Source of the DNA: Escherichia coli
GTDB lineage: Bacteria > Pseudomonadota > Gammaproteobacteria > Enterobacterales > Enterobacteriaceae
DNA length: 64,000 nt
Assembly (NCBI RefSeq): GCF_024223415.1
Contig: NZ_CP100500.1
Strand: one strand, 5' to 3'
In this document: positions 60,825-61,100 of the stretch, one piece after another
Numbering within the stretch: the stretch's first letter is position 1
Layout of the letters: every line of letters begins with the position of its first letter
The notes under the pieces: model-generated
Seen by the model: only the letters and a program-made list of their open reading frames with translations
Told to the model about the DNA's origin: nothing
Database searches by the model: none
Position numbers and translations under genes: made by a program

Positions 60825-60962
60825 CAGCGTTACGGTGCACCACGCCTGACTGAAGAACTGCGTGCTCAGGGTTACCACTTCAACGTAAAACCGTGGCAGG
60901 AGGTCCGGACTGAAAAAACTGCTCAGGACATCATCGGCAGGGAACGCACTGCTAGTCTGTAA
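60825..60962 (+). pseudogene. IS3-family transposase (OrfB-like) internal fragment
   Basis: Frame reads [22 protein letters not shown]..., matching the IS3-family YG.PR...ELR..G..VN.K motif; bounded by stops; no inverted repeats found. Confidence 0.4.
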
Positions 60963-61100
60963 ACTGAACCGACTGGGGCGCAGTATGTGGCATCTTGTCG
61001 TGCTGTTGGAGGAGCTGTGCGAACGTGGTATTAACTTTCGTGCTCTGGCCCAATCTATATTTGCCCAACAATGGGGGGACGAATGCTGTAAAAGTAAAAC
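60961..61100 (+). pseudogene. pinH: serine recombinase / DNA invertase (Pin/Hin-like) remnant
   Basis: Frame reads KLNRLGRSMWHLVVLLEELCERGINFRALAQSI (resolvase core motif LDRLGRS...GINF) then frameshifts; no N-terminal catalytic Ser region. Confidence 0.6.

Follow-up and report, generated by a model that had tools for sequence, protein, structure and literature searches.

Remnants of an IS3 element and of the pinH DNA invertase gene upstream of the autotransporter gene ypjA in Escherichia coli

The short segment between ypjCB and the autotransporter adhesin gene ypjA/EhaD in a 64,000-nt stretch of an Escherichia coli chromosome (NZ_CP100500.1, assembly GCF_024223415.1; the whole stretch is referred to here as the window) is a relic of two mobile-element genes, an IS3 insertion sequence and a phage-type serine DNA invertase. 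It fails the tests for a working IS3 element, a working invertase, and an invertible switch, and is a relic of IS3 and invertase only. Very probably, it represents inert two-gene mobile-DNA debris that became fixed in the ileY-ssrA island by the succession of insertions and deletions proposed below. An initial reading of this DNA, made from its letters and open reading frames (ORFs) (the sequence-only reading), had recognized an IS3-family transposase scrap beside a Pin-like invertase scrap, and this identification is borne out by Pfam, NCBIfam, and DNA matches. The similarity to transposase and resolvase families on which it depended was found for both pieces (Pfam HTH_21, E = 3.6e-4, and Resolvase PF00239, E = 3.7e-10, respectively). 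The position given then, 60825-61100, was close, but the debris starts further to the left, at 60806, and extends to 61059 or possibly to approximately 61079. The features discussed here are as follows (positions in the window):

58356-58431, tRNA-Ile gene (ileY)
59182-60555, + strand, ypjCB (DUF5507 + DUF5508)
60556-60805, no strand, intergenic DNA 3' of the ypjCB stop codon, 35% GC, abutting the IS3 left end as target DNA
60786-61154, - strand, 122-codon antisense ORF over both relics, most likely not a gene
60806-60823, + strand, tip of the IS3 left terminal inverted repeat (IS3 nt 1-18, TGATCTTACCCAGCAATA; 18/18 identical)
60824-60897, + strand, internal IS3 orfB fragment (IS3 nt ~544-618), from the N-terminal HTH-like part of the transposase
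60889-61128, + strand, stop-to-stop frame equal to the K-12 pseudogene pinH (b2648, 240 bp), with the same 79-codon translation
60901-61059, + strand, phage-type serine DNA invertase fragment, codons 42-94 of ~197 (Pfam and blast matches)
61082-61437, + strand, ypjA upstream module, paralogous to the ymgJ-ycgI region (318/356 identical, 89%)
61283-61402, + strand, 39-codon ORF WP_001120794.1, inside an invariant block and outside the debris
61467-64000, + strand, 5' part of ypjA/EhaD (AIDA-type autotransporter adhesin), an open frame from the ATG at 61467 that runs off the window

The region matches E. coli chromosomes with identities of up to 100%, and the local gene order is glaH, an alpha-amylase-like gene, tRNA-Ile (ileY), ypjCB, the debris, the 39-codon ORF, and ypjA/EhaD, which in related strains is directly followed by ssrA. 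The low-GC island with ypjCB and ypjA lies between ileY and ssrA. Here, ypjCB is an intact frame of 457 codons with 35% GC, whereas in K-12 it is divided into ypjC and ypjB, and in several RefSeq genomes it is marked as frameshifted or as having an internal stop. The intergenic DNA at 60556-60805 is present in one copy per genome, has no paralogues, and was recovered in 3,041 of 5,426 complete E. coli genomes (this and the following genome counts are search-summary totals over the same 5,426 genomes; those for this flank, the junctions, and the whole interval require at least 80% coverage). From the amylase-like gene through ileY and ypjCB (~55200-61000), the GC content drops from about 55% to 27%-40%; near 60800, where the IS3 left end lies, it rises from about 35% to about 45%, a level kept through ypjA. 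This profile is consistent with a mosaic of separately acquired DNA. An Rfam scan of 58000-62000 returned the tRNA-Ile as the sole match, and a promoter and terminator scan yielded no more sites than shuffled sequence.

The IS3 relic (60806-60897, 92 bp) consists of the left-repeat tip joined to 74 bp of internal orfB. As reference we used an annotated complete 1258-bp IS3 copy with both inverted repeats and a 3-bp GTA duplication (L008, 971-2228). The earlier statement that no terminal inverted repeats are evident was wrong, as the defining start of the IS3 left repeat, 5'-TGATCTTACCC, is present at 60806-60823, where its first 18 bp only survive. The remainder was recognized at both the DNA and the protein level: 60811-60897 and IS3 nt 531-618 are identical at 78 of 88 positions (89%), comparison with annotated IS3 copies gives 88.6% identity, and the translated piece (22 residues) matches Pfam HTH_21 at profile positions 19-41 and NCBIfam transpos_IS3 at positions 148-181 of 369. 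Both parts have the same orientation. TTACCC occurs in IS3 at nt 6-11 and again at nt 531-536, and the two parts meet at this microhomology, suggesting that IS3 nt 19-543 were lost by an internal deletion. IS3 nt 619-1258 are also missing, and no IS3 sequence past nt 618, and hence no right terminal repeat, was found in the locus; nor did we encounter the 3-bp target duplication seen in the reference copy. The pieces had been described as cut by stops or frameshifts, which holds for a single 1-nt deletion in the IS3 piece (near 60887), but the truncation results mainly from deletions of both ends. Apart from the exact left end and the orfB segment, more than 90% of the element is gone, including orfA, the frameshift site, the catalytic core, and the right end. 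With approximately 25 codons of the orfB N-terminal region left, and neither an orfA-orfB arrangement with frameshift nor an integrase-type catalytic core, the IS3 relic can neither transpose nor be mobilized.

Three bases past the end of IS3 at 60897, homology to a phage-type invertase begins at 60901. The Pfam Resolvase match scores 40.5 bits against a curated cut-off of 23.3 but spans profile positions 43-103 of 145 only. At the DNA level, 60901-61040 is 83% identical to nt 124-263 of an intact prophage invertase gene (L003), and a tblastn search with the intact 197-residue protein aligned 37 of 53 residues as identical (70%) over codons 42-94. Serine DNA invertases of the Hin/Gin/Cin/Pin type carry their catalytic serine near residue 10 and a helix-turn-helix at the C-terminus, and depend on a Fis-bound recombinational enhancer in the 5' part of the gene and on paired inverted 26-bp crossover sites nearby. 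The relic lacks the first 123 nt of the gene, so that codons 1-41 with the catalytic-serine region are missing and the DNA upstream is IS3; the homology starts at codon 42 here and at codon 38 in other lineages. After codon 94, the rest of the catalytic domain and the C-terminal helix-turn-helix DNA-binding domain are missing as well. Between 61060 and 61081, the homology is limited to an ATGGGG-type 8-mer with an indel, which is ambiguous and underlies the possible extension of the debris, and the left edge of the ypjA upstream module at 61082 marks the end of the invertase relic. No other invertase piece was detected by tblastn with the intact protein in the 12.9-kb locus, including the DNA downstream of ypjA. 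There is no functional recombinase in cis, as every lineage examined has the 53-codon internal fragment. Lacking the catalytic serine, the DNA-binding domain, the transposase catalytic domain, and recombination sites, the remnant cannot recombine anything. Judged from its sequence, the debris would take no part in the control of ypjA.

The invertase scrap is the long-annotated pseudogene pinH and as such already known. K-12 positions 2783065-2783304 correspond to 60889-61128 with one substitution, and locus, sequence, and neighbours (ypjC/ypjB and ypjA) are the same, without any substantive difference. RefSeq annotates 60892-61059 as an incomplete recombinase, and UniProt PINH_ECOLI ("Putative protein PinH") is the 47-aa ATG-started tail of the frame (60985-61128). 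Clustering at 90% identity places this 47-aa protein under an unrelated, presumably XseA-like representative of 444 aa, which is a database clustering artefact. The adjoining IS3 relic is left unannotated in the K-12 record and is a small unannotated detail.

The closest relatives of the invertase piece are tail-fibre invertases. The best intact E. coli relative resides in a P2-like prophage, where it has the tail-fibre and tail-fibre-assembly genes on one side and the tail sheath gene on the other. The best matches in a phage collection are "DNA invertase" genes of P2-like myoviruses (80%-84% nucleotide identity), and those in plasmid records are genes annotated as pinE or hin (84%-87%). Overall, the tail-fibre invertases of P2-like phages and prophages and PinE/PinQ/PinR of the cryptic prophages of K-12 share 80%-87% nucleotide and approximately 70% amino acid identity with the relic over codons 42-94. 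The motif LDRLGRS of the intact invertase reads LNRLGRS in the relic, and ERGINFR is common to both. In K-12, the Pin invertases act at short inverted sites to flip a tail-fibre segment of a prophage (PMC12529663). P2-like and Pin invertases have full-length genes of about 190 codons next to an invertible tail-fibre segment with inverted crossover sites (PMC12529663), whereas the relic comprises 53 codons and has neither crossover sites nor tail-fibre genes. A word-indexed search of 5.8 billion proteins with the relic translation retrieved only fragments of 48-97 aa, all from E. coli, and none of the genome or protein searches made returned an intact invertase of this lineage at this locus.

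From the identities and limits of the two pieces, we infer a prophage origin and the following order of events. A phage-type (Hin/Gin/Cin/Pin-like) invertase gene, of the tail-fibre-flipping kind found in P2-like prophages, would originally have been located here, and an IS3 copy may then have inserted to the left of it. A deletion at the TTACCC microhomology would have removed IS3 nt 19-543, and a second one would have joined IS3 nt 618 to invertase codon 42. The invertase was probably cut again after approximately codon 94, at the start of what we refer to as the ypjA cassette (61082 to the ypjA stop codon plus 10 bp), either by deletion or by the arrival of the cassette. Strain NCTC11023 has a P2/186-like prophage at this chromosomal position, demonstrating that such phages use this neighbourhood, which may be integration-prone, with ileY and ssrA both near. 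No other prophage remnant was found around the relic, and a search for att-like repeats of the ileY or ssrA 3' ends around it yielded chance 7-10-mers only. With no such remnant, att-like repeat, or second invertase piece, it is the similarity to phage invertases that points to a prophage origin.

In NCTC11023 (NZ_LS483297.1, 1154760-1161760), a stretch that begins shortly before the amylase-like gene and includes ileY, ypjCB, the debris, and ypjA is absent, and the replacement DNA contains an IS3-family element interrupted by IS30, integrase fragments, and the P2/186-like prophage. Strain ML35 was considered as an alternative ancestral state and rejected, as its left flank ends after 43 bp by an IS3-family-mediated rearrangement. 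A scan of a genome collection with the first 400 residues of YpjA returned two loci only, both without use for reconstructing the ancestral state: a 1.1-kb contig assigned to a Collinsella MAG (83% identical), which is probably contamination, and an Elusimicrobia protein (27% identical). A protein search with the YpjA N-terminus likewise produced AIDA-repeat paralogues and fragments, with no usable orthologue outside E. coli.

The debris is old and travels with ypjA. The IS3/invertase junction was covered in 3,051 of the 5,426 genomes and the invertase/leader junction in 3,006, while the whole interval 60560-61470 was covered by one collinear match in 3,003. These counts approximate the number of genomes having the ypjA-type 5' sequence at 90% identity or more (~3,015, roughly 55% of E. 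coli), and thus the debris accompanies ypjA essentially without exception. The ypjA island is absent from about 2,300 of the 5,426 genomes. Identical truncations are found in lineages that have diverged by 8%-12% across the interval, and the debris would have formed before the divergence of the ypjA-carrying E. coli lineages. Between lineages, the dN/dS of the invertase frame is approximately 0.8-1.05, with 8 nonsynonymous and 0 synonymous changes in one comparison, indicating that the frame drifts neutrally.

The DNA between the debris and ypjA has a history of its own. The paralogue of the upstream module adjoins the ycgI autotransporter remnant in the ymgJ-ycgI region (L004, 5001-5356) and is found in approximately 5,290 genomes. 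A second duplicated part, the terminal 345 bp of ypjA and the next 10 bp, is present at ymgJ-ycgI, between ymgI and minE, with 95.5% identity (L001 6523-6878 and 11118-11472 vs. L004 5001-5709 for the two duplicated parts). As both the leader and the ypjA 3' end are duplicated, the "leader + ypjA" unit has the same two ends at two sites. The ycgI copy lacks the middle, from about 30 bp before the start codon through to the last 115 codons. In the ypjA copy, the annotated ymgJ ORF is interrupted by a stop after 11 codons, and this lack of conservation casts doubt on ymgJ as a gene. Within the leader, a block of 135 nt (61278-61412, 55-190 nt upstream of the ypjA start) shows no substitution in seven E. 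coli lineages, compared to 10-25 variable sites per 100 nt in its flanks. The 39-aa protein WP_001120794.1 encoded in this block is identical in all lineages, and the ymgJ-ycgI copy differs at 5 sites, all of which change an amino acid. The block has no Rfam match, and the fold of the ypjA leader RNA is not unusually stable (z = +0.9). Speculatively, the block could be a cis-regulatory element or encode a leader peptide for ypjA.

The identical ends of the two copies raise the question of whether the right-hand cut of the invertase was made by the ypjA cassette arriving as a discrete unit that inserted into the invertase gene. The cassette ends identically at the ypjA locus and in the interval between ymgI and minE, which are unrelated chromosomal sites, and no more than about 20 bp separate its left end from the last recognizable invertase codon. 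However, the 3' remainder of the invertase gene is absent beyond the other end of the cassette, which has no terminal repeats and no clear target duplication (an ambiguous ACGA only). Furthermore, no recombinase is associated with it, and two copies do not suffice for defining a mobile unit, leaving this scenario unlikely. If it were true, the pinH relic would be the insertion scar of an adhesin cassette that had moved there. Far less probable still, and the least credible of the alternatives we considered, is the ancestral invertible promoter switch hinted at by the sequence-only reading. In this scenario, an intact ancestral invertase would have flipped a promoter segment upstream of ypjA, making the adhesin phase-variable until the system decayed and became locked. 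Serine invertases do drive phase variation elsewhere, as Hin does for flagellin, and the relic ends about 20 bp short of the ypjA upstream module, although this is adjacency only. The proposal is nevertheless unsupported by the DNA around the relic, where no crossover sites were found. A core of the AAACC-NN-GGTTT type is absent from 59000-63000 at 2 mismatches (0 found vs. 1.9 expected by chance) and, at 1 mismatch across the whole window, does not occur near the locus; the published e14 P-segment site has no match with up to 3 mismatches in the whole window, and full 26-bp crossover sites, which serve as leads only, reach at best 16/26. Inverted repeats upstream of the autotransporter start, which the sequence-only reading had proposed to search for in strains with an intact invertase, are at chance level here, the longest perfect one in 60500-61800 being 9 nt (shuffled mean, 9.7), and this interval contains no promoter-bearing segment bracketed by inverted repeats beyond what shuffled sequence offers. 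The segment also has one orientation, being collinear in 3,003-3,051 genomes, although rare variants could be missed in such search summaries. In addition, the ypjA leader paralogue at ymgJ-ycgI has no invertase alongside, the nearest intact relatives serve the tail fibres of P2-like phages, and the search of 5.8 billion proteins returned no intact copy of the relic's invertase lineage.

The remaining alternative concerns the opposite strand, where the 122-codon ORF covering both relics might be a genuine protein-coding gene of recent origin, born on the debris. Its frame stays open in each of the four aligned lineages despite 21-28 substitutions, its dN/dS is 0.50 in two of three comparisons, and some annotation pipelines call it or its 3' part: three RefSeq records (L006, L007, L013) annotate a 53-aa hypothetical protein over the 3' part, and a few older GenBank records call the full ORF a "hypothetical protein". 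On the other hand, random mutants with 21-28 substitutions keep the frame open 31%-41% of the time, and the third comparison gives a dN/dS of 1.27, all values being based on 4-13 synonymous changes. The ORF has no family match in Pfam or NCBIfam, its full length is annotated in none of the RefSeq records examined, including that of K-12, and the weak promoter-like sites that closely precede its start on the - strand number two, below the mean of 3.0 in shuffled sequence. Its earlier description as an antisense artefact is therefore reasonable, and a genuine gene at this position is very unlikely.

The inert debris is ordinary and, apart from the IS3 scrap, already annotated, and its overall importance is small. 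It nevertheless bears on how this locus is read: ypjA/EhaD should be dropped from lists of candidate invertase-controlled phase-variable adhesins, and the 122-codon antisense ORF is not to be treated as a gene. As a marker, the debris is old and fixed, and it labels the ileY-ssrA island in the approximately 55% of E. coli genomes that carry ypjA.
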